Shown: one piece after another, positions 44,373 through 63,815 of the stretch
Layout of the letters: each line of letters starts with the position of its first letter
Numbering within the stretch: position 1 is the stretch's first letter
Assembly: GCA_020434365.1 (NCBI GenBank)
Contig: JAGRAX010000001.1
Coordinates: forward strand, 8,568-72,567
Length of the DNA stretch: 64,000 bases
Source: Bdellovibrionales bacterium
GTDB lineage: Bacteria; Bdellovibrionota_G; JALEGL01; JAGRMV01
Reading direction: 5' to 3'
Notes under the pieces: generated by a model
The model's input: only the letters and a program-made list of their open reading frames with translations
The model's database searches: none
Told to the model about the DNA's origin: nothing
Position numbers and translations under genes: made by a program

Positions 44373-44915
44373 TTAACTTTGCTTACTCATTCGATCCAAA
44401 TATCCGAGAACAGAAGCATCAAACACAATGCCTCCAACCTGTGCTCGAACGCCCCCTATCAACTCTGGGCTTTCTTCGACCTGAAGGTTGATTTTTTTGC
44501 CCACAGCTTTTTCCAAAGCTTTTGTTATTTTATCTTGCTGCACTTGGCTCAAGGAAAAGGCTGTTTGCACAAAAGCTTTGGTTTGTGCGCGGAGCTCTGA
44601 AAGTTCTTTTTCAAAAGCCTGCGCCACTTCTTCCATCAAATAAAGGTGACCTAGCTGCGCCAAGCACTGCGTAAACCTTTGTATCGGGGCAGAGATTTTA
44701 TATGTCGTAAATATACTTTCGAGGACTTGGTTTTTTTCCTCAGCGTCGAATACAGGATTAGAAAAAAATCCCTTGATCTCACCTTGACTGAGAACGGAAA
44801 GCTGCTCAAGCTGCTGAGCGCTTTGATCATATGCTTTTTCATTGGCCTGTTCCTGAAGAACATCCAATAGAGCGTGCGCGTAGCGAGCTGCGAGCTGATC
44901 ACTTTTTTGTGCCAT
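44373..44915 (-). CDS. atpH: F0F1 ATP synthase delta (OSCP) subunit
   Basis: 180 aa (OSCP-like ..RYAHALLDV..). It sits between the b and alpha genes. Confidence 0.8.
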   Translation of the reverse strand: MAQKSDQLAARYAHALLDVLQEQANEKAYDQSAQQLEQLSVLSQGEIKGFFSNPVFDAEEKNQVLESIFTTYKISAPIQRFTQCLAQLGHLYLMEEVAQAFEKELSELRAQTKAFVQTAFSLSQVQQDKITKALEKAVGKKINLQVEESPELIGGVRAQVGGIVFDASVLGYLDRMSKQS

Positions 44916-45398
44916 TTAAATCTGCTCTCCTAACTGCGAAACAAACTGATCCACAAACTGATCGTGGTGTTTTGAACTCATTTGTTTTTTGAGCTCTAAC
45001 TTACTTTCTTCAAGAGCTTGGCCCATGAGTTTTTGTGCCAGCCTTTGCTGCGCAAGTTTTTGCTCTTTTTCAGCTTGGCGCTGCGCCGCCTCTACAATTT
45101 GATCTGCTTGTCTTTGCGCGCGTTGTAAAATTTTTTCTTTTTCAATTTGTCCGTCCTGTTGGGCCTTATGTAAGATATGCTCAACTTCTTGATCTAGAGC
45201 ATTGATTTTACGATCAATGTCTTTGAGCTTTTCTTCAGCTTGTTTTCGAAGTTTTTCACTCTCATCGATATTTTGTGCAATGTCTTCTTTACGCTGCGCC
45301 AAACTTTGAGCGACTGACTTTCTCATGAGAAAAAACAAGGCCAAAGCCAAAAGCACGAGATTTAAAAAAGGTGCAATCAATGACGACAATCCGTGCAT
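44916..45398 (-). CDS. atpF: F0F1 ATP synthase b subunit
   Basis: One N-terminal TM plus a long coiled coil. I placed the start at the internal ATG (MHGLSSLIAPF..), which gives a TAAtATG junction with the upstream b' gene; the track ORF extends to 45503. Confidence 0.75.
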   Translation of the reverse strand: MHGLSSLIAPFLNLVLLALALFFLMRKSVAQSLAQRKEDIAQNIDESEKLRKQAEEKLKDIDRKINALDQEVEHILHKAQQDGQIEKEKILQRAQRQADQIVEAAQRQAEKEQKLAQQRLAQKLMGQALEESKLELKKQMSSKHHDQFVDQFVSQLGEQI

Positions 45399-45399
45399 A

Positions 45400-45972
45400 T
45401 TATGAAGCCCTCGTTGCTTGAGTTTGGCTTTGCGCTCGAGGCCTTTGCTTCGCATCGACTTGTCCCAACACTTTTTCAACAATGCTTTGGGCAAGCTCAT
45501 CACGGTGAGAAGACAGCCCGCTTTGCGCGTCTTTTTCCTGTGAAGCGATTTTTTCTTTTTCTTTTTCTAGCCATTGGCTGGATTTTTCTCGGGTGGCTTC
45601 TAACGATTTTTTCTCTTCTTCTTCAGCTGCCAAAGCCAGCGCCTCACGAGTTTGCGTGGCCTTGATCTTGGCTTCTTCAATGCGCTGCTGATACATGTCC
45701 CATTTTTCCTGACTCAAGAGCTCGTCTTTTTCTGCGAGTTTTCTTTTTCCAAGGGTTTGAGCATCTCGCTCATCGGCTGTCCGTATATAAGGTTCAAATA
45801 CTGTCATCTGCAAAAGCAAAAGAAGTCCCAAAAACAACAAGCCTTGATACAAATATCCATGAGGAGCTTCGACTCCAATGGCTTTCCAAAATCCAACAAC
45901 AGGAAGCAAGAGCGCAAAGGCGGAGAAAACTCCAGCCAAAACAAAAATGTAGGTAAAGGAATGTTTTTTCAT
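45400..45972 (-). CDS. F0F1 ATP synthase b' (second b-type stator) subunit
   Basis: 190 aa with an N-terminal TM (IFVLAGVFSAFALLLPVVGFW) and a charged coiled coil. It lies directly upstream of atpF. Confidence 0.7.
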   Translation of the reverse strand: MKKHSFTYIFVLAGVFSAFALLLPVVGFWKAIGVEAPHGYLYQGLLFLGLLLLLQMTVFEPYIRTADERDAQTLGKRKLAEKDELLSQEKWDMYQQRIEEAKIKATQTREALALAAEEEEKKSLEATREKSSQWLEKEKEKIASQEKDAQSGLSSHRDELAQSIVEKVLGQVDAKQRPRAQSQTQATRAS

Positions 45973-45975
45973 CGC

Positions 45976-46461
45976 TTAGGCTTGAGGACTGATTCCGTTT
46001 TTGCTTTTGTCGGCTGTGGCCTTGACTGCAGCAAAGGGCGCATTTTTCTTTTGATGAGCAGACTTACTCATGCTGCACTTTCCATCAAACTGTACTCCAT
46101 CTTCGATAACAAGGGATGGGGTATCAATGTCTGCTTCTACAACTGCATTTTTGTGGAGTTCAACGCGGGTTTTTGCATGAATGTTTCCCTGAAAACTTCC
46201 CGAAATGGATACTGAACCCACATTGATGTCACCTTCGACTTTTCCGCTTTCGCCGATGACCATGTGTGATTCGGAATAAATTTGACCCTTAAATGTGCCG
46301 TCGATGCGAACCGTACCCTCAAAGGTGAGCTTGCCTTCGAACTCACTACCACGATCTAAAATCGCATTGAAGCCACCGACAGGGGTCGTTACTTTGTGAC
46401 CTGCTCCGTTGGTACTGAAACTCTCGCTCTGTGTACTTCGTTCATTTTTTAGGATTCCCAT
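45976..46461 (-). CDS. bactofilin (polymer-forming cytoskeletal protein, DUF583)
   Basis: 161 aa with the bactofilin beta-helical repeat pattern (..GKLTFEGTVRIDGTFKGQIYSESHMVIGESGKVEGDINVGSVSISGSFQGNIHAKTRVELHKNAVVEADIDTPSLVIEDGVQFDGK..). Only 3 nt separate it from the downstream b' gene. Confidence 0.85.
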   Translation of the reverse strand: MGILKNERSTQSESFSTNGAGHKVTTPVGGFNAILDRGSEFEGKLTFEGTVRIDGTFKGQIYSESHMVIGESGKVEGDINVGSVSISGSFQGNIHAKTRVELHKNAVVEADIDTPSLVIEDGVQFDGKCSMSKSAHQKKNAPFAAVKATADKSKNGISPQA

Positions 46462-47626: not shown

Positions 47627-48544
47627 TTATAAAGATGAAAAGCCAAAAGACTCTAGCGCAGCTTTTGCAACTTGCTCGCCATGCTCTTGTACAAAATGCC
47701 CCGCCTGCGAAAGACATAGCGGAGGCGGGCAGTTGGCAATAACTTTGCTCATGGGTAGCATCACATCCGGTCCAAGAATGGGATCTTTCATCCCAATGGC
47801 CATAAAACTGTCTCCACTCCAAGAAGTCTTCCACCACGCAAGAGCTTGCTGCGAAAGTTTGGCAATTGGGTCGTCAGATGAGGTAGGTACAAGATCTGGA
47901 AAACGTCGTACTCCAGCGCAGTAACGTCCATTTGGAAAAGGCGCGCTATAGGCCGATGCTTCTTCTTGGCGTATTGAAGGTTCCCATTTTTGCATCAGCC
48001 TGTCCACGTGAAGAAAGTCATGCTTTCGATTGAAATCTCTCCACTGCAAAAAAGCCTCGTTGACCTTTCCGATTCCAAAACCCGTATTCATGATTAACAG
48101 TCTTGTGAAAAGACTTGGCATTTCCATGGGAAGCGTTAAGCCCAAAAGACCTCCCCAGTCCTGGCAAACCAAGGTGATATTTGTAAGCTCTAGTTTTTCG
48201 ATCAAGGCAATCAAAAGGTTGCGATGAAAGTTAAAGGTATACACTTCATCGTCAACAGGTTTGTCTGATTGTCCAAATCCGAAAAAATCTGGAGCCACAA
48301 CGCGAATCCCCTTTTGCACAAAAACAGGAATCATTTTTCGGTAGAGATAACTCCATGTCGGCTGGCCATGCAAACACAAAAAAATATCTTTGGAATCTTT
48401 TGGACCTTCATCGAGATAAGCAAGACTCAATCCCTCATAGCCAGGTACATTTTCGAGTCTGAGTGTAGAGAATGAATACCCTGGCAAAGCTTCGAAGTTT
48501 TCCTGCGGCGTCCGAAGAACTTGAGTTGATCGCATCAGACTCAA
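47627..48544 (-). CDS. haloalkane dehalogenase-like alpha/beta hydrolase (HLD-I / DhlA-like)
   Basis: 305 aa with long stretches resembling Xanthobacter DhlA as I recall it. ..FLCLHGQPTWSYLYRKMIPVF.. and ..APDFFGFGQSDKP.. are present, as is ..ITLVCQDWGGLLGLTLPM.. with the Asp nucleophile in QDWGG and catalytic His in ..AGHFVQEHGEQVA... Its ATG abuts the parB stop. Confidence 0.7.
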   Translation of the reverse strand: MSLMRSTQVLRTPQENFEALPGYSFSTLRLENVPGYEGLSLAYLDEGPKDSKDIFLCLHGQPTWSYLYRKMIPVFVQKGIRVVAPDFFGFGQSDKPVDDEVYTFNFHRNLLIALIEKLELTNITLVCQDWGGLLGLTLPMEMPSLFTRLLIMNTGFGIGKVNEAFLQWRDFNRKHDFLHVDRLMQKWEPSIRQEEASAYSAPFPNGRYCAGVRRFPDLVPTSSDDPIAKLSQQALAWWKTSWSGDSFMAIGMKDPILGPDVMLPMSKVIANCPPPLCLSQAGHFVQEHGEQVAKAALESFGFSSL

Positions 48545-52198: not shown

Positions 52199-52921
52199 TT
52201 ACCGTCTCACCAAGCTTTCAGTTTCATAATAACGATTGGCCACAGAGACATTGGGATACACAAGACAAGCTGGGGCCATCAGCACACCGGGGTTTAAAAC
52301 GCTGTTACATCCTGTTTGACAGCCGTCACCTATAATGGCGCCCATTTTTCTCAAGCCTGACTCTATGTCATCCCCTTGAATTCGAAGCTTGACTTCTCCA
52401 TCCGTAATTTTCAAGTTCGAAACTTTCGTACCCGCTCCCAAATTGACCTCATTGCCAAGAATGCTGTCCCCAACATAGGCAAAGTGCGCGGCCTTAGCGC
52501 CGTTACAAAAAATAGAACTTTTCACCTCTGTCGCATGACCAATCACACAGTGTTCTCCTGCAATCAAACCTCCCCGGATATAGGCTGATTGGCGAATCTG
52601 ACTGTGAGGACCTATAATACTGGGTCCCTGAATGTAGGCTCCAGGCTCAACGGTCACACCTTCTCCAAGCTCAACCTCTCCCTCAAAGTAAGCTCCAGCT
52701 TTAATATAGACCTTTCCTCCCCCTCTGGACCTTAATTCTGTATCTTCTAAAATCAGTCCCTGTGGAGTGTTCGGTGAAATTTGACTTTCAATCCACTCTT
52801 CTTTTACTCCCTTTGACAAAATATCCCAGGCAAATTCTAGATCTTGAAAAAGATCACGAAACCACAAAAGCTTTGTGTCGACATAGTGATCAATATTATA
52901 TGTTTCACGTGAAACATTCAT
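52199..52921 (-). CDS. hexapeptide-repeat (left-handed beta-helix) protein, probable acyl/nucleotidyl-transferase-like
   Basis: 240 aa with repeated [LIV]G..x..x hexads through the central region. It lies 1 nt upstream of mnmG, and its first codons contain an 18-bp palindrome. Confidence 0.5.
52900..52917. promoter_or_regulatory. perfect 18-bp palindrome ATGTTTCACGTGAAACAT (copy 1)
   Basis: 9+9 perfect inverted repeat overlapping the start codon region of the 52199..52921 gene. An identical core occurs at 53064..53083. Confidence 0.5.
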
Positions 52922-53063
52922 GGCTGGAAACTATACCTTCTTTTCTTCCTCAAGTGGAGCAGAAAAACTCTTCAATGAATGAATTTTTCGTTTTCGAAAT
53001 AATTTTATAGTAATCCTATAAAATCGATCACATTCTATAAATAAAAGTGGTTAAAAAATCTGT

Positions 53064-53083
53064 CATGTTTCACGTGAAACATG
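53064..53083. promoter_or_regulatory. perfect 20-bp palindrome CATGTTTCACGTGAAACATG (copy 2)
   Basis: Starts 15 nt downstream of the dnaN stop. It shares the core of copy 1 with one extra base pair on each side. Confidence 0.5.
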
Positions 53084-53097
53084 GAACTACTTTATCT

Positions 53098-54222
53098 TCA
53101 GACACGCATAGGCATAATGACACCAAAATAGCTTGGGTCATCAGGAATTCGAACTACCCCAGGGCTTTGCTCGTGGTTAAACTCAAAAACAACTTTGTCT
53201 CCTTGACTTGCGCTCAAGGCATCCAAAACATATTTGGCGTTAAAACCAATATTGAGTTCTCCCCCATCAAACTCGCCAAAAATTTCTTCCTCTGCTTCTC
53301 CCAACTCTGGTGAGTTGGCTCGAAGTAATACTCCCTGTCCATGGATTCCAAATTTTACACATTTGGATTTTCCTTCTGAAAGAAGCGAAACTCTACGTAA
53401 ACTCTGATAAAAAGATTCTTTTTCCAAGGTAAGTTTTTTGTTGTTGTTTTTAGGGATGACAGCTGTGTAATCTGGAAACTCTCCTACAACCAGTCTCATA
53501 AAAAGTTTAGTGTCTTTAACTTTACATACGGCATTACCTTGACTCACAGCAAAATCTATCTCATTTTCTTTGGCATCCGAAAGAAGTTTTTTCAATTCAA
53601 AAACACCTTTTCTGGGTAATATAACACTCTTATCAAGGTTAAAATTCTCATTTTCATCTAAGTCTTTGTTATAAAAAGCTAAACGGTGTCCATCTGTCGC
53701 AACCATTCTAAATATTTTTTTTCCATTACCTAACGTTTCTGTTTCTATAAGCGAGCCGTTGAGATTATATCTCATCTCATCAGTACAAATGGCAAAAGAG
53801 GTTCGATCAATGGCATACTTGAGTGTGTTGGTTTGCAGACGAGAAAATTCTATATCTGAAGACGAGGGCATCTTTGGAAATTCACTGCCATCTACGCCTG
53901 CGATTTTAAATTGGGCCTTGCCACTGTGAATTGTAATCCAAGATTGATCGCTGGATACAAGTTCGCCCTGCTCTGCAGGAAGTTCCTTAATAATGCTTAT
54001 AAAATAACTCGAAGGAACGCAGATCCGTCCCGGCTCTTCAACTTTAGCTTCGATCTGAGTTTGAATTCCTATTTCTAAGTCTGTGGCTTGAATCAAAAGA
54101 CATTGGTCTTTGGCTTGAATTAAAATATTTCCCAAAATGGGCATTGTAGTTTTTTTCTCAGCTACGCTGGAGACACGACTCAATGCTTTAAGAAAAGGAA
54201 CTTTATCAAACTGAACTTTCAT
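53098..54222 (-). CDS. dnaN: DNA polymerase III beta sliding clamp
   Basis: MKVQFDKVPFLKALSRVSS...TMPILGNILIQ.. aligns with the E. coli DnaN N-terminus, and the C-terminus is ..VIMPMRV. The track ORF starts 3 codons upstream at 54231. Confidence 0.9.
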   Translation of the reverse strand: MKVQFDKVPFLKALSRVSSVAEKKTTMPILGNILIQAKDQCLLIQATDLEIGIQTQIEAKVEEPGRICVPSSYFISIIKELPAEQGELVSSDQSWITIHSGKAQFKIAGVDGSEFPKMPSSSDIEFSRLQTNTLKYAIDRTSFAICTDEMRYNLNGSLIETETLGNGKKIFRMVATDGHRLAFYNKDLDENENFNLDKSVILPRKGVFELKKLLSDAKENEIDFAVSQGNAVCKVKDTKLFMRLVVGEFPDYTAVIPKNNNKKLTLEKESFYQSLRRVSLLSEGKSKCVKFGIHGQGVLLRANSPELGEAEEEIFGEFDGGELNIGFNAKYVLDALSASQGDKVVFEFNHEQSPGVVRIPDDPSYFGVIMPMRV

Positions 54223-54231
54223 TACACACAC

Positions 54232-54479
54232 TCCCTTAAGATAGTATATTCTTTAATATAAAATTCGTCGTAATAGAAGATCTTGTGGATAATTTTTTTC
54301 TTCTATACAAGTTATGAATTTTATTTATGAAATCGTTAAAAAACCCCTGTGGAAAAAAACCATTTTGTAAAAGTTTATTCCAAGACATGTATTTTCCAAA
54401 GTTGCAAACCTGTGGAAGATAGAGCAATTTTCCACAGAAGTTCACATGCTTTGTGGATAAGATAGTAAAAAAAAGTTTA
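54232..54479. other. candidate oriC: DnaA-box cluster in the dnaA-dnaN intergenic region
   Basis: Perfect TTATCCACA boxes (as the complement TGTGGATAA) lie at 54283..54291 and 54451..54459. Near-perfect boxes lie at 54347..54355, 54411..54419 and 54427..54435. AT-rich stretches are at 54249..54280 and 54460..54479. Confidence 0.6.
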
Positions 54480-55826
54480 TTAGACATGCTCATGAAGGGC
54501 CTGCTGAAGGATTTGCATCGTCTGATGAAGCTGTGGATCCTGACTTAAGGTTTTAGAAATTTTAGAAACGCCGTGCAAAATGGTGGAGTGATCCTTTCCT
54601 CCAAAAGCTTGACCCAATTCAGGAAAAGATTGTTTGGTTAATTGTCGACAAAGATACATCGCAATTTGTCTGGGTTGTGCGACAACTTTATGTCTTTTGT
54701 TTGATTTAAGATCAGAAACTTTGAGATGAAAAAATTTTGCAACGGTCTGAAGAATCATTTCCACTGTGATTTCTTTTTCTTTGGGGGTCATCGAATGAAG
54801 AATTTGTTTGGCAACAGTCAAAGAAATAGGCTGCCCCGAAAGAGAAGTATACGCGCCCAAACGAATCAAACAACCTTCCAAAACACGAACATTGGTTTTC
54901 ACCTGGCTCGCAATGTAATAAGACACCTCGTCTGGAAGGTCTATATGATCGGCCAAAGATTTTTTTCTAATGATCGCAACCCTTGTCTCTACGTCCGGAG
55001 CTTGAATGTCACAGAAAAGACCAGATTGAAATCTAGATCTAAGCCGTTCATCCAAATCGGGAATTTCATGAGGCATACGATCAGAAGTTAAAACAATCTG
55101 TTTATTGTTTTGAAAAAGTTTATTGAAAGTATGAAAAAACTCTTCTTGAGTTCTTTCTTTCTTTGCAAAAAACTGAATGTCGTCAAGTAGAAGCAAATCA
55201 CATTGCCTTCGATACTGATCTCTAAACCTTTCAGTCTGGCCGTTTCGAATGGATTGAATCAACTCATTGACAAACTCTTCAGAACTTCGGTACAAAACTT
55301 TCGCCCTAGGGTTTTTGTCAAGCCACACATGTCCAATGGCATGAAGCAAATGAGTTTTTCCCAAACCCACTCCCCCATAAATCAGCAAAGGGTTGTAGCT
55401 TTTTCCAAGTTTACTGGCTACGGCTTGCGCCGCAGCATGCGCAAATTGATTGTTTGGCCCCACAACAAACTCATCGAAACGATATTTTTGATTCAAACGT
55501 AAAGAAGGTCCAAACTCCTTTTTTTCTTTCAAAGAGACTATGGAGGGTTTCTCTTCCAAATCAGGTGTATGCATTTGTTTTTCAACTTGCGCAGAGATCG
55601 AGAGCCTTACTTCGCCACCCAGGCGTCCAGAGTGATGTACCAACATTTTCTCAATGGTGGAAAGGTAATCCTTTTGAACCCTAATTTTATAAAACACATT
55701 GGGAACTTCTAGGATCCAACCCTTTCCCGAGTTTTTGCAATCCAAAGGCTTGATCCAAGTATTGAATGCGTGAGTTGAAAGCTGCTCCTTGAGTTCCGCT
55801 TGAGTTTTTTGCCAACAGTCGTTCAT
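54480..55826 (-). CDS. dnaA: chromosomal replication initiator DnaA
   Basis: 448 aa with AAA+ Walker A GGVGLGKTHLL and Walker B LLLLDDIQF. The C-terminal DNA-binding domain reads ..IAMYLCRQLT..SFPELGQAFGGKDHSTILHGVSKI... Confidence 0.95.
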   Translation of the reverse strand: MNDCWQKTQAELKEQLSTHAFNTWIKPLDCKNSGKGWILEVPNVFYKIRVQKDYLSTIEKMLVHHSGRLGGEVRLSISAQVEKQMHTPDLEEKPSIVSLKEKKEFGPSLRLNQKYRFDEFVVGPNNQFAHAAAQAVASKLGKSYNPLLIYGGVGLGKTHLLHAIGHVWLDKNPRAKVLYRSSEEFVNELIQSIRNGQTERFRDQYRRQCDLLLLDDIQFFAKKERTQEEFFHTFNKLFQNNKQIVLTSDRMPHEIPDLDERLRSRFQSGLFCDIQAPDVETRVAIIRKKSLADHIDLPDEVSYYIASQVKTNVRVLEGCLIRLGAYTSLSGQPISLTVAKQILHSMTPKEKEITVEMILQTVAKFFHLKVSDLKSNKRHKVVAQPRQIAMYLCRQLTKQSFPELGQAFGGKDHSTILHGVSKISKTLSQDPQLHQTMQILQQALHEHV

Positions 55827-55939
55827 AAATTTTTTTAAGGTTCTAAAGTGTTACTCGTGTAACGGGTGTAAAAATTATGTCTATATCGAACTTCAGGTGG
55901 TACCGGCATAAGGAAGTTTTGGTCAAGAAAGAAAACTTT

Positions 55940-56400
55940 CCCTTTTTTCAAAACGCTTATCCACAACTATATCTTTCAAATTAAAAAATTGTAAGGCTTT
56001 GAAAATGCAACCAATAGTCAGACAATTTCGATTCTCCCAATCAAAGAAAAAAAAGATTCCTATCCACAGTTTCACCTTCGGTCACCGCAGACCGAAAAAA
56101 ATACGCGCCCAAATTCTTCTTCACTATCAAAGACTAAGAAATTCATTGTACATGTTGTTCTATAAGTCATCGACCATAAGCTTTTAAAATCAAGACAAAA
56201 AACCAAAGGAAAAAAATCACATACTCATTTTACCAGGTGTTTCTAGGTCCAAACCTAAAACGAAGACATTCCCTGTGGACAAATAAAAAAGACAAAAGCT
56301 CATAAAAAAAAATCCAAAACAAGAAACGTAAATATCTAAGAAAAAAAACCATGTGATACTAAGCGATTACATGAAATTTAAAGAAGAATTTGCAGAATAT
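55940..56400. other. second DnaA-box/AT-rich region upstream of dnaA (possible bipartite origin or dnaA autoregulatory region)
   Basis: A perfect TTATCCACA lies at 55947..55955 and a one-mismatch box (TTGTCCACA) at 56275..56283. Positions 56150..56400 are strongly A-rich, inside an ~870-nt non-coding gap between dnaA and rpmH. Confidence 0.45.
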
Positions 56401-56697
56401 ATATTTCTCATTTTTTTCAATGGCCTGCCCCAGGCCTGTGAAAAGATCTTGCCGCGAGAAACTTTTGATCGTTGACTTGAGGATCAACATATGGTCTAAG
56501 CATTCTGATCTCTTAGGTCGCTAGCATTCCAGGCACAGCAATGCTCAGGTTTATTATGTGTCAATATGAGGAAGGCCCTACAAAAGAGACCCTCGCAGCC
56601 AGGAAATGAAACTGGCCGAGAGCAAGCCCGCTTTTAGGGATATGAAGCAAAAAAGCTTCAAAAAATTAACGAGTTGAACATTTAGGGAAGAAAAAAA

Positions 56698-56847
56698 ATG
56701 AAACGTACATATCAGCCGAGCAACATCAGCAGACTACGCACACACGGTTTTTTAAGTCGCATGGCCACAAAATCAGGTCAAAACGTCATCAAAGCCAGAC
56801 GAAGAAAAGGTCGCAAAAGACTCTCTGTTTCAGCTGCGAGCAAATAA
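56698..56847 (+). CDS. rpmH: 50S ribosomal protein L34
   Basis: Not in the ORF track (49 aa). [49 protein letters not shown] matches the L34 consensus. It is preceded by GGGAAG and followed by rnpA. Confidence 0.9.
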
Positions 56848-56850
56848 GAC

Positions 56851-57222
56851 ATGTCTCAGGTCCAGGCTGGACCTTTGTCTTTTTCTGCCAACATGAGAGT
56901 TCGAAAGGCTTCGGATTTTCGATATATTAAAGAAAGAGCTCAGGTGCAGCACTCTACAACAATGCTTCTGTTGTCTGCAACACAGGAGCAAGGCCGAGCC
57001 AGATTGGGTTTGGTCGTAACCAAAAAAACCGGATGCGCGGCTGTGCGAAATCGTTGGAAGCGCAAAATCCGTGAATACTTTAGACTTCACCCTGAAAACT
57101 TTCACAACGATCAGGACTACGTTTTTATCGTTAAGTCCAAAACCAAAGGCATGCCTGGTACAAGGCTGGAGCAAGAAATTGAATATCTGCTTCGAAAGCA
57201 AGACCAGGGGAGGATGCTTTGA
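56851..57222 (+). CDS. rnpA: ribonuclease P protein component
   Basis: 123 aa, basic, with the RnpA-type ..[11 protein letters not shown].. motif. It sits between rpmH and yidD. Confidence 0.85.
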
Positions 57223-57440
57223 TGAGGCTATTGATTCGTATGTATCAAATTGCGCTTTCACCTTTTTTACCCGCGAGTTGTAGGTTTCATCCGACTTGCT
57301 CGCATTATGCTCTAGAAGCTTTTGAGCAGAAAGGTGCGCTCAAAGCTCTGGGCCTCACACTGCTTCGCTTGTCCAAATGTCACCCCTTCCACCCTGGTGG
57401 ATTTGATCCAGTTCCTCAACCCAAAAGAGAAAGATCCTAA
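57219..57440 (+). CDS. yidD: membrane protein insertion efficiency factor YidD
   Basis: 73 aa with ..[49 protein letters not shown].. Confidence 0.9.
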
Positions 57441-57441
57441 G

Positions 57442-59079
57442 ATGTCGACTGAAAAAAGAATGCTGCTGGCCATCGTGCTCATCATGGGCGTAACCTTTGT
57501 TTGGTCCAAACTGTTTTTTCCGCAGCAGTCTCAACAAAGTACAAACGCAAAAAATATCATTGCTGAACAGAACTCAGACCAAGCTGCTCAAACCGCGACC
57601 GAAAGCCTCCCTCAAGTTTTGGATCTTACACCCGATCGCAAAAAAACAAGTCAGGCCAAAGTCATTGCCTTGCAAAATATTGAATTTGAAACTCCAGAAA
57701 GTTTTGGAACTGTAAGTAGTCATATGGCGAGCTTGCAATCGTTTGAACTGACAACATACAAGCTCCAGCAAAAACAAGGGGCTCCAGGCGTGTCCTTGGT
57801 TCCCTTTACTCCTGATTCCAAAGCTCCTCTGCAGTGGAAGTACACGCTAGGTGAAAAAACTTTTTTTGATCGAGACCTTTACTATCAAGTTGTTGAAAAA
57901 GACACAGATCATGTGAGTTTTCGCGCGCAGCTTCTGCCACAAGTTTTTGTAGAAAAAACTTGGTACTTTCAAAGCAAACCTTATGTTCTGGATCTAGATC
58001 TTAGAATCATCAATCAGAGCTTAAGTGATCAGGCCTTAAACGTTCAAATTCAAAACTTTGCGCGCCCGAAAGAAAACACAAAGAAAACAGGAATCTTTTC
58101 GATGTTTTCTTCCCGTGAACAGCCTCTGCGAGCCATGGCTTATGTAAACGAAAAAAACTATCACTGGACCTATGAAGACATTTTGGATGGTGAGAACCTC
58201 TCGCCCAAAGGCTCTGTGTCATGGCTTGGCTTTGATTCGCAGTATTTTGTTTTTTCTGTGCTTCCTGATCAGGGCAATTGGTCTGGCGTTGAGGCTTCTA
58301 CCCAAGACGAGCAAGCTGTGATTTCAGCAATCTATCCAGATCGAACCCTTGCCTCGGGCAAGGTCCAGGAGTTTTCTGTAAAAGTATATGCGGGTCCTAA
58401 AGACATTGATCTTCTTCGTGAAGTTGGAAATGATTTGGACCTGAGTATTGATTACGGAATTTGGGGACCGATTGCACGACCCATCTTGAGTTTGCTTCGT
58501 TGGATTCATGGCTTTGTTCCCAACTATGGTTTTGCCATCATTATTTTAACCCTTTTGGTTCGGGCTTTGATGTTTCCCTTGGTCCAAAAGCAAGCGCGTT
58601 CGATGAAAAAAATGCAGGCGCATCAACCTGCAATGAATGCTCTGAAAGAAAAACATGGTGAAGATAAAGAGGCCTATACACGCGAACTCATGACCTATAT
58701 GCGCACCCATAAAATCAACCCCATGGGAGGTTGTTTGCTTTTGCTACCGCAAATGCCCATTTTCTTTGCTTTGTATCGGGTGCTCTACAATGCTGTTGAG
58801 CTACGTCATGCGCCCTTTGCACTTTGGATCAAAGACCTTTCGAGTCACGATCCTTTTTACGTTTTGCCGGTGCTTGTGGGAATCACCTTTTTCCTACAGT
58901 CCAAACTCAATCCCACACCCACCAGCGATCCAGCACAACAAACAATGATGAAAATCATGCCAGTCATGTTTTCTGTTTTTATGGTTTTTCTCCCTTCGGG
59001 CTTAAATCTGTATATTTTTGTAAGCACCGTTTGGGGAATCGTTCAACAATACATTGTCCAGAGAAAGCCGGCCGTATAG
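57442..59079 (+). CDS. yidC: membrane protein insertase YidC
   Basis: Probable start at ATG 57442 (MSTEKRMLLAIVLIMGVTFVW..); the track ORF starts at 57322 and overlaps yidD. The conserved C-terminal insertase core is ..GFAIIILTLLVRALMFPL..PMGGCLLLLPQMPIFFALY... Confidence 0.9.
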   Translation: MSTEKRMLLAIVLIMGVTFVWSKLFFPQQSQQSTNAKNIIAEQNSDQAAQTATESLPQVLDLTPDRKKTSQAKVIALQNIEFETPESFGTVSSHMASLQSFELTTYKLQQKQGAPGVSLVPFTPDSKAPLQWKYTLGEKTFFDRDLYYQVVEKDTDHVSFRAQLLPQVFVEKTWYFQSKPYVLDLDLRIINQSLSDQALNVQIQNFARPKENTKKTGIFSMFSSREQPLRAMAYVNEKNYHWTYEDILDGENLSPKGSVSWLGFDSQYFVFSVLPDQGNWSGVEASTQDEQAVISAIYPDRTLASGKVQEFSVKVYAGPKDIDLLREVGNDLDLSIDYGIWGPIARPILSLLRWIHGFVPNYGFAIIILTLLVRALMFPLVQKQARSMKKMQAHQPAMNALKEKHGEDKEAYTRELMTYMRTHKINPMGGCLLLLPQMPIFFALYRVLYNAVELRHAPFALWIKDLSSHDPFYVLPVLVGITFFLQSKLNPTPTSDPAQQTMMKIMPVMFSVFMVFLPSGLNLYIFVSTVWGIVQQYIVQRKPAV

Positions 59080-59109
59080 CTTTGAGTGGCAATATAAGGA
59101 GTAAATAAA

Positions 59110-60141
59110 ATGGGTATGTTTAATATTTTTAAAAATCTGACCAAGAAAAAAGAAACCTCGCATGTTCGTCACGGACAAAATGACGAATGGATTGAAATCA
59201 AAGCCAGCGACAAAAAAGAAGCCATTGAGAGAGCGTGCAACGCCCTCAACATTCAGCGTTCGCATGTGGAGATCGAAGACCTAGGTGGAGGAAGAATCAG
59301 AGCCAGAAAAAAATCAGCCAAAGCCAACACACAAACAGAGGAAAACGAAGGCAGAGAAAAGAAACCTCGAAGAAAAAACTACAAAAAAAAACCAGCGCAA
59401 AAAAAACGCGTTCAAGAAAGAAAAGAAGCCAGCAATAAATCCTCAGATGAGGATGAGTATTACGGTGAGAATGAAAGAACGGTAAGCCGAAAAAATCCCT
59501 TTGACTATGATGAGTCCGAACTGGTTGGAGATCAGTTTGAGGAAGAAGTCGAAGAGGAAACCGAGCAAGGCAAAGTTGCCAAAGAGTATTTGGAAAAAAT
59601 CGTTGCACAAATCAAAGAAGGCACAACGGTTGAACTTTTTGAAACCAACAGGCAAATTCGTTTAGAAATTGAAAGCGATGAATCAGGACTCTTTATCGGA
59701 AAGCATGGTTCTACATTAGAAGCGATTCAACATTTGCTTTCAAAAATGTGCCGTGCGGGAGAAGACGAAAACAAACGCATTGTCATCGATGCCGAAGACT
59801 ATCGCGTGCGTCGAGAAGAAGCCTTAGAAGCCAAAGCGCAAAAGCTTGCAAAAAAAGCTCGCAAAGAAAGAAGGCCTGTAAGCGCAGAGCCTATGAATGC
59901 AATGGATCGACGTGTATTGCATATGGCTCTCAAAGGTGAGCCTGGCGTAGAGACCAAAAGCGTGGGTGAAGGTAGTGGAAGACGTGTATTGATCGTTCCC
60001 AAAAATGCTCGACCAAACTCTTCCCGAAATGGTGGTCGAAGAAACTCCAGAAGCGAGGACAGAGGCAATCGAAGAGAGCGTTTTGAATCTTATGAAATGC
60101 CCAGCCATGACGATAACTTTGGCAACAACGACTACGAATAA
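59110..60141 (+). CDS. jag: Jag/KhpB RNA-binding protein (Jag-N, KH and R3H domains) with a long Lys/Glu-rich linker
   Basis: 343 aa with a KH-like ..GLFIGKHGSTLEAIQHLL.. and an R3H ..PMNAMDRRVLHMAL... It lies downstream of yidC as in other bacteria. Confidence 0.8.
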   Translation: MGMFNIFKNLTKKKETSHVRHGQNDEWIEIKASDKKEAIERACNALNIQRSHVEIEDLGGGRIRARKKSAKANTQTEENEGREKKPRRKNYKKKPAQKKRVQERKEASNKSSDEDEYYGENERTVSRKNPFDYDESELVGDQFEEEVEEETEQGKVAKEYLEKIVAQIKEGTTVELFETNRQIRLEIESDESGLFIGKHGSTLEAIQHLLSKMCRAGEDENKRIVIDAEDYRVRREEALEAKAQKLAKKARKERRPVSAEPMNAMDRRVLHMALKGEPGVETKSVGEGSGRRVLIVPKNARPNSSRNGGRRNSRSEDRGNRRERFESYEMPSHDDNFGNNDYE

Positions 60142-60188
60142 AAAACGCAGCTTTTCAACCAACCGATTCTCGGAGACCGATTGTAGTA

Positions 60189-60215
60189 TGGCACCTTTTC
60201 CGGGAAAAGGTGCCA
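60189..60215 (+). other. perfect 11-bp stem / 5-nt loop hairpin between jag and mnmE
   Basis: TGGCACCTTTT ccggg AAAAGGTGCCA. No T-run follows, and the mnmE start is 18 nt downstream. Confidence 0.5.
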
Positions 60216-60232
60216 GGCACCATTTGGGTTAG

Positions 60233-61597
60233 GTGGCTGTGGATACGATTGTTGCGATTTCTACCTCTACGGCGAGTGCTTCGGGCATTGGTGTGATTCG
60301 GCTTTCGGGTCCTAAGGCCAAAGAAATCGCGCAGCGCTGTTTTTTTTCATCAGAAAAAAAAATTCAAAGTCATCGCGTGTATTATGGACGCTTTGTAGAT
60401 GTTAACGAGCACGTTCTCGATGATGGTTTGATGGTTTTTATGAAATCTCCCAAAAGTTTTACGGGAGAGGACCTGGTAGAAATTTCCTTGCACGGAAACC
60501 CCTTGATTTTATCTCAGGCGGTAGAAACTTTGATTGTCAGAGGCGCACGCCTTGCCCGTCCTGGAGAATTTAGTGAGCGGGCGTTTTTGTCGGGAAAACT
60601 CGATCTCATGCAGGTGGAAGCCATCGCACAGCTGATCGCATCTGGGAGCAGCGAAGAAGCGCGTCAGGCCAGAAGACGCTTAGATGGAAAAAGCTCTTTG
60701 TTGATCACGCAGCTCATGGAAAAGACCACGCACCTGCTTGCGCAACTCGAAGCGGATATTGATTTTCCTGAGGAGGATATAGATCCGGATGTAGAGGATC
60801 AGCTCCTGCAAAAATGTCAGGAATTGATGGATCTTTCCAAAACACTTTTGTCGAGTTATGCCCATATCCAAAAACTTTCGTCCGGGTATCATGTTCTTAT
60901 TGCAGGTCTTCCCAATGCAGGTAAAAGTACGCTATTTAATGCGCTTCTTGGAAGTGAGCGCGCCATTGTGACCGACATCGCGGGCACGACTCGTGACACG
61001 CTCGAAGAAGAAATATGGATTGAGGGTCGAAACATTCGTTTAATCGATAGCGCGGGCTATGCACCCCAAACCCAAGATCCCATAGAAAAACAGGGCATAT
61101 CGCGCATGGAAGACAAACTCAAACATGTCGATTTGCTGTGCTGGATATGCGACGTCTCAGATCCTGACTTTGAAGCTGCGCACAAAATCTTTGCCTCCGT
61201 CCCCCCACATCGGCGTTGGTGGATCTGGTCCAAAACAGACTTGCCTTCTCCACTTCCCCCAAAGCCAGATCTTGAGCTGGACCATGTTTTGGGCTTGAGC
61301 GCCAAAAGTGGCCAAGGTTTGGAAGCCTTCCGGCAGGATCTACAAAAACGATTTTCTACGCAAGTTCAGGACATTGAGGGGGGAGGCATCGCCAATGATC
61401 GCCAAAAAAATCTCCTAGAAGCCTTTTATCAATCTTGTTTTCAAACCTCCCAATCTATTGCCAGGCATGACTCCCCTGAGCTTATTGCTTTTGAACTGAG
61501 GCAAGGCTATCGAAATCTTCAGGACATGCTGGGCCAGGATATAGATATGGAAAAAGTCTATGATGAAATTTTTTCCACTTTTTGTGTGGGAAAATAA
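60233..61597 (+). CDS. mnmE: tRNA modification GTPase MnmE (TrmE)
   Basis: 454 aa with G-domain motifs GLPNAGKST and DSAG, and a C-terminal CxGK (FCVGK). Confidence 0.9.
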   Translation: MAVDTIVAISTSTASASGIGVIRLSGPKAKEIAQRCFFSSEKKIQSHRVYYGRFVDVNEHVLDDGLMVFMKSPKSFTGEDLVEISLHGNPLILSQAVETLIVRGARLARPGEFSERAFLSGKLDLMQVEAIAQLIASGSSEEARQARRRLDGKSSLLITQLMEKTTHLLAQLEADIDFPEEDIDPDVEDQLLQKCQELMDLSKTLLSSYAHIQKLSSGYHVLIAGLPNAGKSTLFNALLGSERAIVTDIAGTTRDTLEEEIWIEGRNIRLIDSAGYAPQTQDPIEKQGISRMEDKLKHVDLLCWICDVSDPDFEAAHKIFASVPPHRRWWIWSKTDLPSPLPPKPDLELDHVLGLSAKSGQGLEAFRQDLQKRFSTQVQDIEGGGIANDRQKNLLEAFYQSCFQTSQSIARHDSPELIAFELRQGYRNLQDMLGQDIDMEKVYDEIFSTFCVGK

Positions 61598-61760: not shown

Positions 61761-62237
61761 ATGAAAAATCGCTGCTCGGCAAGTGGCATGCCTGGACCTG
61801 ACACTCCACAAGAAACAAGCCAAAATATGGACTCAATTTCAGAATCCCTCCGCAAAAAAAAACTCATACTACTCGTAGATGATGAGCCCGATCTTCGAGA
61901 AGTGATTTCTTTGAGACTCCGAACCGCGGGTTTTGATGTGGTTGTGGCGAGCAATGGTCGTCAGGCTGTGAACATGGCCAGAAACTTCAAACCTGATCTC
62001 ATTGTGATGGATCTGTACATGCCCGAAATGGATGGACACCAAGCCATCGAGGCCATTCGAAAAGAAATTCCAGAGCATTTCCCTGTTATCATTTTAACAG
62101 CGAGCAATGAGATGGAAGATGTCATGAATGCATGTGTCAATGAGGCGGATGCCTACCTGACCAAACCTTTTAATCCAGCCGAGCTGATCAAAACGGCGGA
62201 CCAGCTGCTAGCCAAAAAGTTTCAAGGAAAAAAATAA
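61761..62237 (+). CDS. single-domain response regulator (CheY-like receiver) with a 35-aa N-terminal extension
   Basis: 158 aa with ..LLVDDEPD.., the phospho-acceptor context ..LIVMDLYMPEMDG.. and ..YLTKPF... AAGGAAG lies 10 nt upstream of the ATG. Confidence 0.85.
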   Translation: MKNRCSASGMPGPDTPQETSQNMDSISESLRKKKLILLVDDEPDLREVISLRLRTAGFDVVVASNGRQAVNMARNFKPDLIVMDLYMPEMDGHQAIEAIRKEIPEHFPVIILTASNEMEDVMNACVNEADAYLTKPFNPAELIKTADQLLAKKFQGKK

Positions 62238-62291: not shown

Positions 62292-63815
62292 TTATGTTTC
62301 AACTTTGAACGAGCCTTTGAGCTTGGAGCAAAAAGCTTGCAAACTCAATTCATTGAAATGTCTCTTTTCAAAGTTTTGATGCGCAACTTCTATGCCTTGA
62401 TCTTCTTCAGAGGGCTTTACAAACCTATGAACGATGCTGCGCAAGTTCTCTTCTCTTTTTTTGATCATCAAAATGATGTAGCCCTGTTCTAGATAGTCAT
62501 TCATGACCTCATCTTTTCTTGCAATTTGCTGAATGCGCTCCCATATCGGAGCATTGTCAGAGCCCATGTGATGATTTTTAAAGATAACAAGCCCGATGCT
62601 ATCAGAGCTTTCTTGAAAATTTTTCATAGAGCGCAATCGATCGATCAAGCTACTAAAATGAGGATTGATGTTTTGGTAGAGTGGAAGCTGAAAACAAAAG
62701 GTAGCACCCTTTCCGATTTCGCTGATGAGTTTGAGTTCACTACCATGCATTTCCACAAGCTTTTTGGAAATGGCCAGCCCCAAACCTGTGCCCTGTTTTC
62801 CGGGTTTGTATTTTCGATTAATCTGAACAAAACTATCAAAGACGCGGATCTGATTTTCTTGGCTGATCCCAGGCCCTTTATCTTTGACCGAAATCTCGAT
62901 TCCATTTTCTTTTTTTTCTACTTCTAAAAATACTTCCCCCTCTTCCGGTGTAAATTTCAAGGCATTGCCCATCAAATTCATCATGACTTGAAAAATTTTG
63001 GATTCATCCATAAAAACATCGGGAAGATTTTCGTCCATTTTTAGGCGAATCTTTCGATTGCGATGAGATTTCTGAAATTGCTCCACGATCGAAGTTAAAA
63101 GTTTGTCGATGGAGCCTTTTTTCCTAATGACCTCAAGTCTTCCAGAATTGATTTTTTCCAAATCCAAAACATCATTGATCAAATCCGTCAAACGATTGCA
63201 GTTTTTTACACAGGCGCTTAGAGCCTCTTTTTGTTCTTTGCTTAGAGCGCCCATAGAACCCTCATACAAAAGAGAACAATATTCCTTAACCACGGTCAAA
63301 GGTGTGCGAATTTCATGAGACACCACAGAAACAAATTCTGATTTGTGCCGGTTGATATCTTGCAGGGCCTTGATGGATTCTTTTTGAGCCTCAATGGCGT
63401 GTTGTTTGGTTTGTTCAATTCTGTAATGGTCCAAGACCAATTGAATGCTTTTTTCAAGTCTGGTGGTGTTGATTTGCTCTTTGATCAAATAATCTTGCAC
63501 ACCACTTTTAAAAGAAGAAACGGCGGTTTTTTCATCACCCCTTCCTGTGAGCATAATGATGGGAATGTCGATCTGCTGACTGCGTATATTTTTTACAATT
63601 TCAACCCCGTTTTGTGGCATCATTTGATAGTCACAAAAAACAATGTCACTGTTTTTAATTTCTTCTTGATGTTTCTGAAGATCAAAATCTAGTTCATAGT
63701 GGACTTGAGCTTTGAATTTTTCAAATCGTTTGCAAAGCTCAATGAAATAATCAATGTCCGCTATGGAATCATCAATCAGATAAATTCGAAGCTCTTCCTG
63801 TGTTTCATTTGTCAT
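62292..63815 (-). CDS. hybrid sensor histidine kinase: N-terminal receiver, HisKA, HATPase_c, and an uncharacterised ~130-aa C-terminal domain
   Basis: 507 aa. The REC domain reads ..IYLIDDS..CDYQMMPQNG..IIMLTG.., the H-box is SVVSHEIRTPL, and the N/G boxes are ..NALKFT.., DKGPGI and GTGLGLAI... Confidence 0.85.
   Translation of the reverse strand: MTNETQEELRIYLIDDSIADIDYFIELCKRFEKFKAQVHYELDFDLQKHQEEIKNSDIVFCDYQMMPQNGVEIVKNIRSQQIDIPIIMLTGRGDEKTAVSSFKSGVQDYLIKEQINTTRLEKSIQLVLDHYRIEQTKQHAIEAQKESIKALQDINRHKSEFVSVVSHEIRTPLTVVKEYCSLLYEGSMGALSKEQKEALSACVKNCNRLTDLINDVLDLEKINSGRLEVIRKKGSIDKLLTSIVEQFQKSHRNRKIRLKMDENLPDVFMDESKIFQVMMNLMGNALKFTPEEGEVFLEVEKKENGIEISVKDKGPGISQENQIRVFDSFVQINRKYKPGKQGTGLGLAISKKLVEMHGSELKLISEIGKGATFCFQLPLYQNINPHFSSLIDRLRSMKNFQESSDSIGLVIFKNHHMGSDNAPIWERIQQIARKDEVMNDYLEQGYIILMIKKREENLRSIVHRFVKPSEEDQGIEVAHQNFEKRHFNELSLQAFCSKLKGSFKVET

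Follow-up and report, generated by a model that had tools for sequence, protein, structure and literature searches.

The intergenic region between dnaA and dnaN in the window (the whole stretch of DNA that was analysed, 64 kb in length) is proposed to be the chromosomal oriC, a single-module origin of the Bdellovibrio/Bacillus type, with a probability that we put slightly above 80%, and it is predicted with nearly the same confidence to be the site of DnaA-dependent unwinding. As judged from the DNA alone, all the features of a DnaA-dependent origin that can be tested on sequence appear to be present in this gap, and the GC skew of the window is uninformative. The preliminary description of this stretch had suggested a likely oriC between dnaA and dnaN, with a placement like that reported for Bdellovibrio. 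The first suggestion is supported by a cluster of DnaA boxes, by a conserved module of box, trios and AT-rich DNA and by the GC-skew minima of five relatives, and the second agrees with the mapped oriC of B. bacteriovorus, which also lies in the dnaA–dnaN gap and contains boxes of the form NN(A/T)TCCACA.

The gap is bordered by the following features.

53098–54222, minus strand: dnaN (TIGR00663, E = 3.9e-87), with the ATG at 54222 taken as the start
54232–54238, minus strand: dnaN ribosome-binding site AAGGGAG, read from the sequence (AGGGAG in relatives)
54480–55826, minus strand: dnaA (TIGR00362, E = 6.8e-162; Pfam DnaA_N, Bac_DnaA and Bac_DnaA_C)

The true start of dnaN is most likely the ATG at 54222: position 1 of the NCBIfam dnaN profile falls on residue 4 of the GTG-started ORF, AAGGGAG is found 7 nt upstream of this ATG, and ATG AAA is the dnaN start common to ten of the 11 loci that were compared, the called start in L091 being GTG GGG. 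With this start the gap measures 257 bp (54223–54479), which corrects the 248 bp claimed previously. The origin-proximal gene set described around the gap (rpmH–rnpA–yidD–yidC–jag–mnmE, dnaA–dnaN and mnmG–parAB) was identified in full, in the order parB, parA, mnmG, hexapeptide transferase, dnaN, dnaA, rpmH, rnpA, yidD, yidC, jag and mnmE, where the genes from rpmH to mnmE are divergent from dnaA and extend from 56698 onward. The hexapeptide-repeat transferase gene between dnaN and mnmG was missing from the earlier list. A bactofilin gene and a gene for a hydrolase of the haloalkane-dehalogenase family (45976–46461 and 47627–48544) adjoin the parAB block, and ATP-synthase b/delta-like genes are located at 44373–45972. 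Just past mnmE, on the right arm, the gene for a stand-alone response-regulator receiver protein (61761–62237, plus strand) is convergent with that for a hybrid histidine kinase (62292–63815, minus strand), which has a receiver domain of its own. No Rfam family (no tRNA, rRNA or riboswitch) reached its gathering score in the 64 kb.

The window was compared with ten relatives (L082, L083, L085 and L087–L093), fetched with their flanks, giving a sample of 11 loci with DnaA identities of 50–77%. The closest relative is L082 (GCA_041391365.1, 'Bdellovibrionota bacterium'), with a DnaA identity of 77%, and the other nine show identities of 50–56%. The 11 loci are not independent, as L087 and L088 are near-identical in this region and the same holds for the window and L082. 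A search of the GTDB species representatives with DnaA gave relatives of at most 48% identity, mostly Firmicutes, which are too distant for footprinting. The source of the window is a metagenome-assembled genome; its DnaA is identical to an NCBI protein labelled as from a Bdellovibrionales bacterium MAG and is also found on the Logan assembly of SRR7638773. In the nine more distant relatives, recF and/or gyrB–gyrA follow dnaN, and parBA–mnmG is located behind mnmE. The window (52199–61597 compared) and L082 have the opposite flanks, with dnaN followed by the hexapeptide transferase, mnmG and parAB, and the simplest explanation would be that the core segment mnmE…rpmH/dnaA–dnaN is inverted relative to its flanks in these two loci. 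After such an inversion all of the genes stay co-oriented with the replication forks, and it is of no help in choosing between the gaps on the two sides of dnaA.

The following DnaA boxes were assigned in the gap and in the 3' end of dnaA.

54284–54292, minus strand: box E, perfect TTATCCACA; unwinding-proximal, the equivalent of E. coli R1 and B. bacteriovorus box 1
54348–54356, minus strand: box D, TTTTCCACA, one mismatch; the phased partner of box E
54392–54400, plus strand: weak box TTTTCCAAA
54411–54419, minus strand: box C, TCTTCCACA, two mismatches with the core TCCACA intact; 63 bp from box D, not conserved in L082
54428–54436, plus strand: box B, TTTTCCACA, one mismatch; the sole reverse-oriented strong box, with a degenerate counterpart, GTATTCACA, in L082
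54452–54460, minus strand: box A, perfect TTATCCACA; 20 bp past the dnaA stop, position kept in L082
54532–54540, minus strand: candidate sixth box, GGATCCACA, in the 3' end of dnaA

The box search of the gap thus returned the two perfect and three imperfect boxes in both orientations that had been listed before, and the AT-richness ascribed to the gap is likewise borne out (72% A+T versus about 57% across the window); no 40-mer in the 64 kb is less stable than 54289–54328, which lies inside it. Boxes A–E and the box in the 3' end of dnaA, six in all, fit NN(A/T)TCCACA. The relaxed Bdellovibrio consensus core, WTCCACA, has 34 matches in the 64 kb, and six of these are located inside 300 bp, forming the densest cluster, whereas more than three boxes per 300 bp were never reached in 500 first-order Markov (dinucleotide-frequency-matched) randomizations of the window; the Poisson probability of the cluster is about 2e-8 per window. 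The cluster could be read as box-like words that have piled up by chance in an AT-rich intergenic region, considering that a 9-mer with two mismatches is common (220 matches in 64 kb), but this reading is refuted by the shuffle and Poisson tests and by the positional conservation across the 11 loci, and we regard it as next to impossible.

The start offsets of the same-orientation boxes E, D, C and A are 0, 64, 127 and 168 bp, spacings that are close to whole helical turns and place these boxes on one face of the helix; the D–E spacing is the only one of them that is conserved across the clade. The GGATCCACA box is found at the same position in L082 (−60 from the stop) and in none of the other relatives, and because it overlaps conserved Asp-Pro-Gln codons its conservation in L082 is ambiguous. 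Two other features of the gap were set aside. An 85-amino-acid ORF spanning it (54236–54493, minus strand) was rejected as a gene because of 7-nt indels relative to L082 and because the small gap ORFs called in L083, L087, L089 and L093 fall on inconsistent strands. An exact direct repeat of 10 nt, TAAGATAGTA (54237–54246 and 54458–54467), has one copy adjoining the dnaN ribosome-binding site and one adjoining box A; it has no conserved counterpart in L082 and is probably a chance occurrence.

The proposed unwinding module adjoins box E on its dnaN side and contains the following elements.

54280–54283: 4-bp spacer, AGAT on the minus strand; 4 bp in all 11 loci
54262–54279, plus strand: DnaA-trio array, 5'-AAT TCG TCG TAA TAG AAG-3', that is 3'-GAA GAT AAT GCT GCT TAA-5' when read away from the box
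54239–54279: proposed duplex unwinding element, comprising the trios and the AT block, about 78% A+T

From dnaA towards dnaN, the order is box D, interspace, box E, the 4-bp spacer, the trios, an AT-rich stretch of about 30 bp and the dnaN ribosome-binding site. When the 11 loci were anchored on box E, the dnaN-proximal box, its orientation was identical in all of them. The information content, computed on the first eight loci, is highest in box E (1.71 bits per column), followed by the trios (1.51), and is 0.71 in the D–E interspace. The triplets CTT CTA TTA are found on the strand reading TTATCCACA, and 3'-GAA GAT AAT-5' on the other strand. The middle A of trios 1–6 is present in 11, 10, 8, 8, 7 and 9 of the 11 loci, respectively, with a background base frequency of 0.36, and the second trio is 3'-GAT-5' in nine of 11 (GAC in L091 and GCC in L093). 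Only three trios of the window are canonical (3'-GAA GAT AAT-5'), the fourth and fifth being the non-canonical GCT, as in L082. The loose trio pattern (NAN, at least three) is common by chance in AT-rich DNA, and the argument from the trios therefore rests on their conservation. The trios were placed on the strand that carries the box as TGTGGATAA, an assignment that we derive from the 3'-GAT-5' notation and from the E. coli oriC. In the E. coli oriC, the T-rich upper strand located 5' of R1 (TGTGGATAA) is the strand bound by DnaA, and box E has the same orientation relative to the AT-rich region as R1.

As described for the basal unwinding system of B. subtilis (Richardson 2016, 2019; Pelliciari 2021), a DnaA box is followed, after a spacer of up to 16 bp, by at least three NAN trios with the consensus 3'-GAT-5'. 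The system is predicted in most bacterial origins, with the spacer being a GC-rich region of 4 bp on average; tandem boxes beside the trios occur in 57% of the predicted systems and are not obligatory, single-box systems being recognised. In the window, the box, for which up to two mismatches are allowed, is perfect and directed toward the trios, the 4-bp spacer lies inside the allowed range of 0–16 bp and the first three trios follow one another as NAN, whereas the spacer, AGAT, is not GC-rich, unlike that of the described system, and no tandem second box was found within 3 bp upstream of box E.

Comparison of the window with L082 gives 100% identity from box E through the AT block, about 66 bp, whereas identity is about 75% in the 3' coding end of dnaA and about 50% in the interspace. 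The critical parts of the gap thus appear to be under stronger selection than the adjoining coding DNA. The A+T content of the trio-bearing segment on the dnaN side of box E is 0.64–0.75 in the eight loci measured, and part of the conservation of the AT block could serve the expression of dnaN, as this block overlaps the dnaN 5' leader.

The second conserved element is the distance between boxes D and E, which enclose the following region.

54293–54347: D–E interspace, 55 bp; proposed region of bending or looping rather than of primary unwinding

A box in the same orientation as box E (box D) is located 62–64 bp from it, start to start, in all 11 loci, which corresponds to about six helical turns. 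The interspace is 53–55 bp long in all 11, with an A+T content of 0.38–0.78 and a poorly conserved sequence. The thermodynamically weakest duplex of the window is found in this interspace and not in the proposed unwinding element. The interspace was considered as the primary unwinding element and rejected, with A+T contents as low as 0.38–0.57 in relatives and with the trios on the other side of box E, and the unwinding element was placed at about 54239–54279 because of the trios, the conserved AT-richness and the match to the mapped element of B. bacteriovorus. By analogy, the fixed interspace is probably a bend or loop that brings the DnaA on box D to the box-E complex, a reading based on two precedents: the phased distal box of B. 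subtilis and the R1–R5M interspace of E. coli, which is bound by IHF or HU. The E. coli interspace, about 45 bp by our count, compares with 55 bp in the window. Inspection of the interspace by eye gave no convincing match to the IHF consensus.

The cumulative GC skew of the window declines steadily over the first 59 kb or so, to a minimum at 58997. Only some 5–8 kb of the window are located to the right of the origin, where the skew is dominated by noise, and with so little sequence on that side the window skew is uninformative for the origin. The local cumulative skew of five relatives (L089, L090, L091, L092 and L093) has its minimum inside the dnaA–dnaN gap, which makes up 1–2% of each locus. 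In four of these five, dnaA carries the skew sign of the left arm although it is transcribed rightward (the value is near zero in L091), and the skew switch is therefore related to replication and not to the point of divergent transcription between rpmH and dnaA. No usable skew signal was found at the locus scale in L082, L083, L085, L087 and L088. The coding bases to the left of the origin in the window comprise 22.8 kb on the minus strand versus 27.4 kb on the plus strand, a weak bias that does not localise the origin.

These data bear on the possibility that the boxes are transcriptional or titration sites for dnaA and dnaN, with the origin between rpmH and dnaA, where Pseudomonas has it, or beyond the ends of the window. 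Control of the dnaA and dnaN operons by DnaA boxes is known from many bacteria, the dnaN leader and the conserved AT block overlap, and the skew minimum of the window, 58997, is to the right of both gaps. However, the sequence to the right of the origin is too short for an informative skew, the minima of the five relatives fall in the dnaA–dnaN gap with dnaA of left-arm sign in four, the in-register 3'-GAT-5' trios beside a correctly oriented box have no known role in transcription, and the rpmH–dnaA gap is poorly conserved and contains no trio module. An origin elsewhere is thus considered very unlikely, and the dnaA–dnaN gap is retained as the proposed oriC.

Upstream of dnaA, the rpmH–dnaA gap (55827–56697) is unusually long and measures 871 bp, compared with 526–769 bp in the relatives in which rpmH is called, and contains the following features.

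55921–55926, minus strand: TTGACC, −35-like, putative dnaA promoter (function inferred)
55957–55965, plus strand: perfect DnaA box, −139 from the dnaA start; at −138 in L082 amid diverged sequence
56060–56068, plus strand: DnaA box CTATCCACA, −242; L082 counterpart TCATCCACA at −241
56274–56282, minus strand: DnaA box TTGTCCACA; this stretch of the gap is absent from L082

The gap is poorly conserved as a whole, and the clearest blocks common to the window and L082 are the box at 55957–55965 and the TTGACC block, a 17-nt sequence, TTTTCTTTCTTGACCAA (55915–55931), that is identical in L082. This block is located about 30 bp downstream of the box and about 100 bp before the dnaA start. The three upstream boxes most likely serve autoregulation of the dnaA promoter, a reading suggested by the position of the best conserved box about 30 bp upstream of TTGACC, which is the classic dnaA arrangement. 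A scan for promoter and terminator consensus sequences gave nothing above the shuffle expectation, and no Rfam match was found in the rpmH–dnaA gap in the locus and whole-window searches. A GC-richer stretch is located at about 56420–56660, upstream of rpmH.

The same boxes might instead belong to a bipartite origin, in the style of incAB plus incC in B. subtilis or oriC1 plus oriC2 in H. pylori, and cooperate with the dnaA–dnaN gap by looping across dnaA. Three boxes with at most one mismatch in 871 bp compare with about 0.19 expected (shuffle mean), two of the upstream boxes keep their positions in L082 despite the divergence around them, a perfect TTATCCACA is found upstream of dnaA in seven of the eight relatives scanned, in gaps of 526–769 bp (none in L089), and distal boxes in B. 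subtilis are able to act over hundreds of base pairs by looping. On the other hand, the upstream boxes are few and widely spaced, their number and orientation vary among the relatives, the best conserved one has the layout with TTGACC that is typical of autoregulation, the rpmH–dnaA gap contains no conserved box-plus-trio module and the B. bacteriovorus oriC is defined as the dnaA–dnaN region alone. A bipartite arrangement is thus judged to be unlikely, and a single module between dnaA and dnaN remains the preferred reading.

By the criteria that can be applied to sequence, the window origin falls into the class of origins built from DnaA boxes and DnaA-trios. Among characterised origins, its nearest relative appears to be the oriC of B. 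bacteriovorus HD100 (BdoriC; Makowski et al. 2016, PMC5124646), a 232-bp dnaA–dnaN gap with NN(A/T)TCCACA boxes that was mapped by footprinting, P1 nuclease and replication-initiation-point mapping. Its footprinted boxes include those in the 3' end of dnaA, and its unwinding element of about 55 bp is located some two helical turns from box 1, with GAT trios behind a short spacer (PMC5124646). The two origins occupy the same gap (232 versus 257 bp) and have the box types TTATCCACA, GGATCCACA and TCTTCCACA in common, and TTTTCCACA of the window also fits NN(A/T)TCCACA. In both, rnpA–rpmH is located upstream of dnaA, and the unwinding element (the proposed one in the window) contains GAT trios and is found past the final box, towards dnaN. 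The candidate GGATCCACA in the 3' end of dnaA may correspond to the boxes of BdoriC in that position. They differ in that the window has five or six boxes versus eight, that its spacer is AGAT and not GC-rich, that GCT GCT follows its first three trios, and that the downstream genes are the hexapeptide transferase, mnmG and parAB versus recF–gyrB–gyrA. The two DnaA proteins are distantly related, and the origins were compared by published description.

The likeness to incC of B. subtilis consists of the location of the module between dnaA and dnaN, the succession of box, short spacer, 3'-GAT-5' trios and AT-rich DNA, and a helically phased distal box. The window differs in having a single box beside the trios in place of the tandem boxes 6 and 7 and a sparse cluster of three boxes upstream of dnaA, and its organism is Gram-negative and predicted probably to lack the DnaD/DnaB loaders. 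Compared with the Left-DOR of E. coli (unwinding element, R1, IHF region and R5M), the unwinding-proximal box is oriented as R1 and the next box has the same orientation after an interspace of fixed length, which is compatible with the model of bending and single-strand recruitment, whereas the E. coli oriC is located between gidA and mioC and the proposed origin of the window lacks 13-mer repeats and has a single GATC in place of GATC clusters. The oriC1–dnaA–oriC2 arrangement of H. pylori is similar in having boxes on either side of dnaA and unwinding downstream of dnaA, whereas the upstream set of the window is small and promoter-associated in appearance.

Two parS sites were found close to the proposed origin.

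52901–52916: perfect parS TGTTTCACGTGAAACA, 16 bp, at the 5' end of the hexapeptide-transferase gene
53066–53081: perfect parS TGTTTCACGTGAAACA, 16 bp, located 17 bp downstream of dnaN

The pair is 1.2–1.4 kb from the boxes, and 0.56 matches with up to three mismatches would be expected in the window. All seven relatives that were scanned have parS-like sites at this gene boundary as well, regardless of where the block of hexapeptide transferase, mnmG and parAB is found. The preliminary description had included neither the unwinding module nor the box cluster upstream of dnaA nor the parS sites.

In the proposed mechanism, ATP-DnaA would bind first to the perfect boxes E and A and then to the weaker boxes D, C and B. 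A DnaA filament starting from box E would extend onto the trios of the plus strand and stretch this strand, the stretching would open the AT-rich region 54239–54279, and the helicase would be loaded there. Across the bent interspace, box D would probably make contact with the unwound strand or with the complex on box E, and the parS pair 1.2 kb away would load ParB for segregation of the origin.

The proposed origin is of an ordinary kind and does not change the understanding of how bacterial origins function, and the mildly interesting residue is the clade-wide lock of a second box six turns from box E. A more specific reading, which we regard as a tentative possibility, is a clade-wide minimal hybrid origin that combines a single-box Bacillus-like module with an obligatory box six turns away; in the sub-lineage of the window, an inversion of the whole core from mnmE to dnaN would in addition have spared the module. 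If this were true, a fixed bend bridged by DnaA–DnaA contacts, possibly stabilised by HU or IHF, would be essential for opening and would be placed directly on the dnaN leader, and the 53–55-bp interspace would be free to vary in sequence. The 11 loci together amount to a natural experiment that tests the basal-unwinding-system model independently: the box, the spacer length, the trio register and the phased second box are conserved, and between the two boxes the sequence drifts. The lineage is uncultured and has predatory relatives, and a base-level annotation of its proposed origin (boxes, trios, unwinding element and parS), as given here, would be useful for replichore assignment, for estimating growth rates from metagenomic coverage and for assembly checks.
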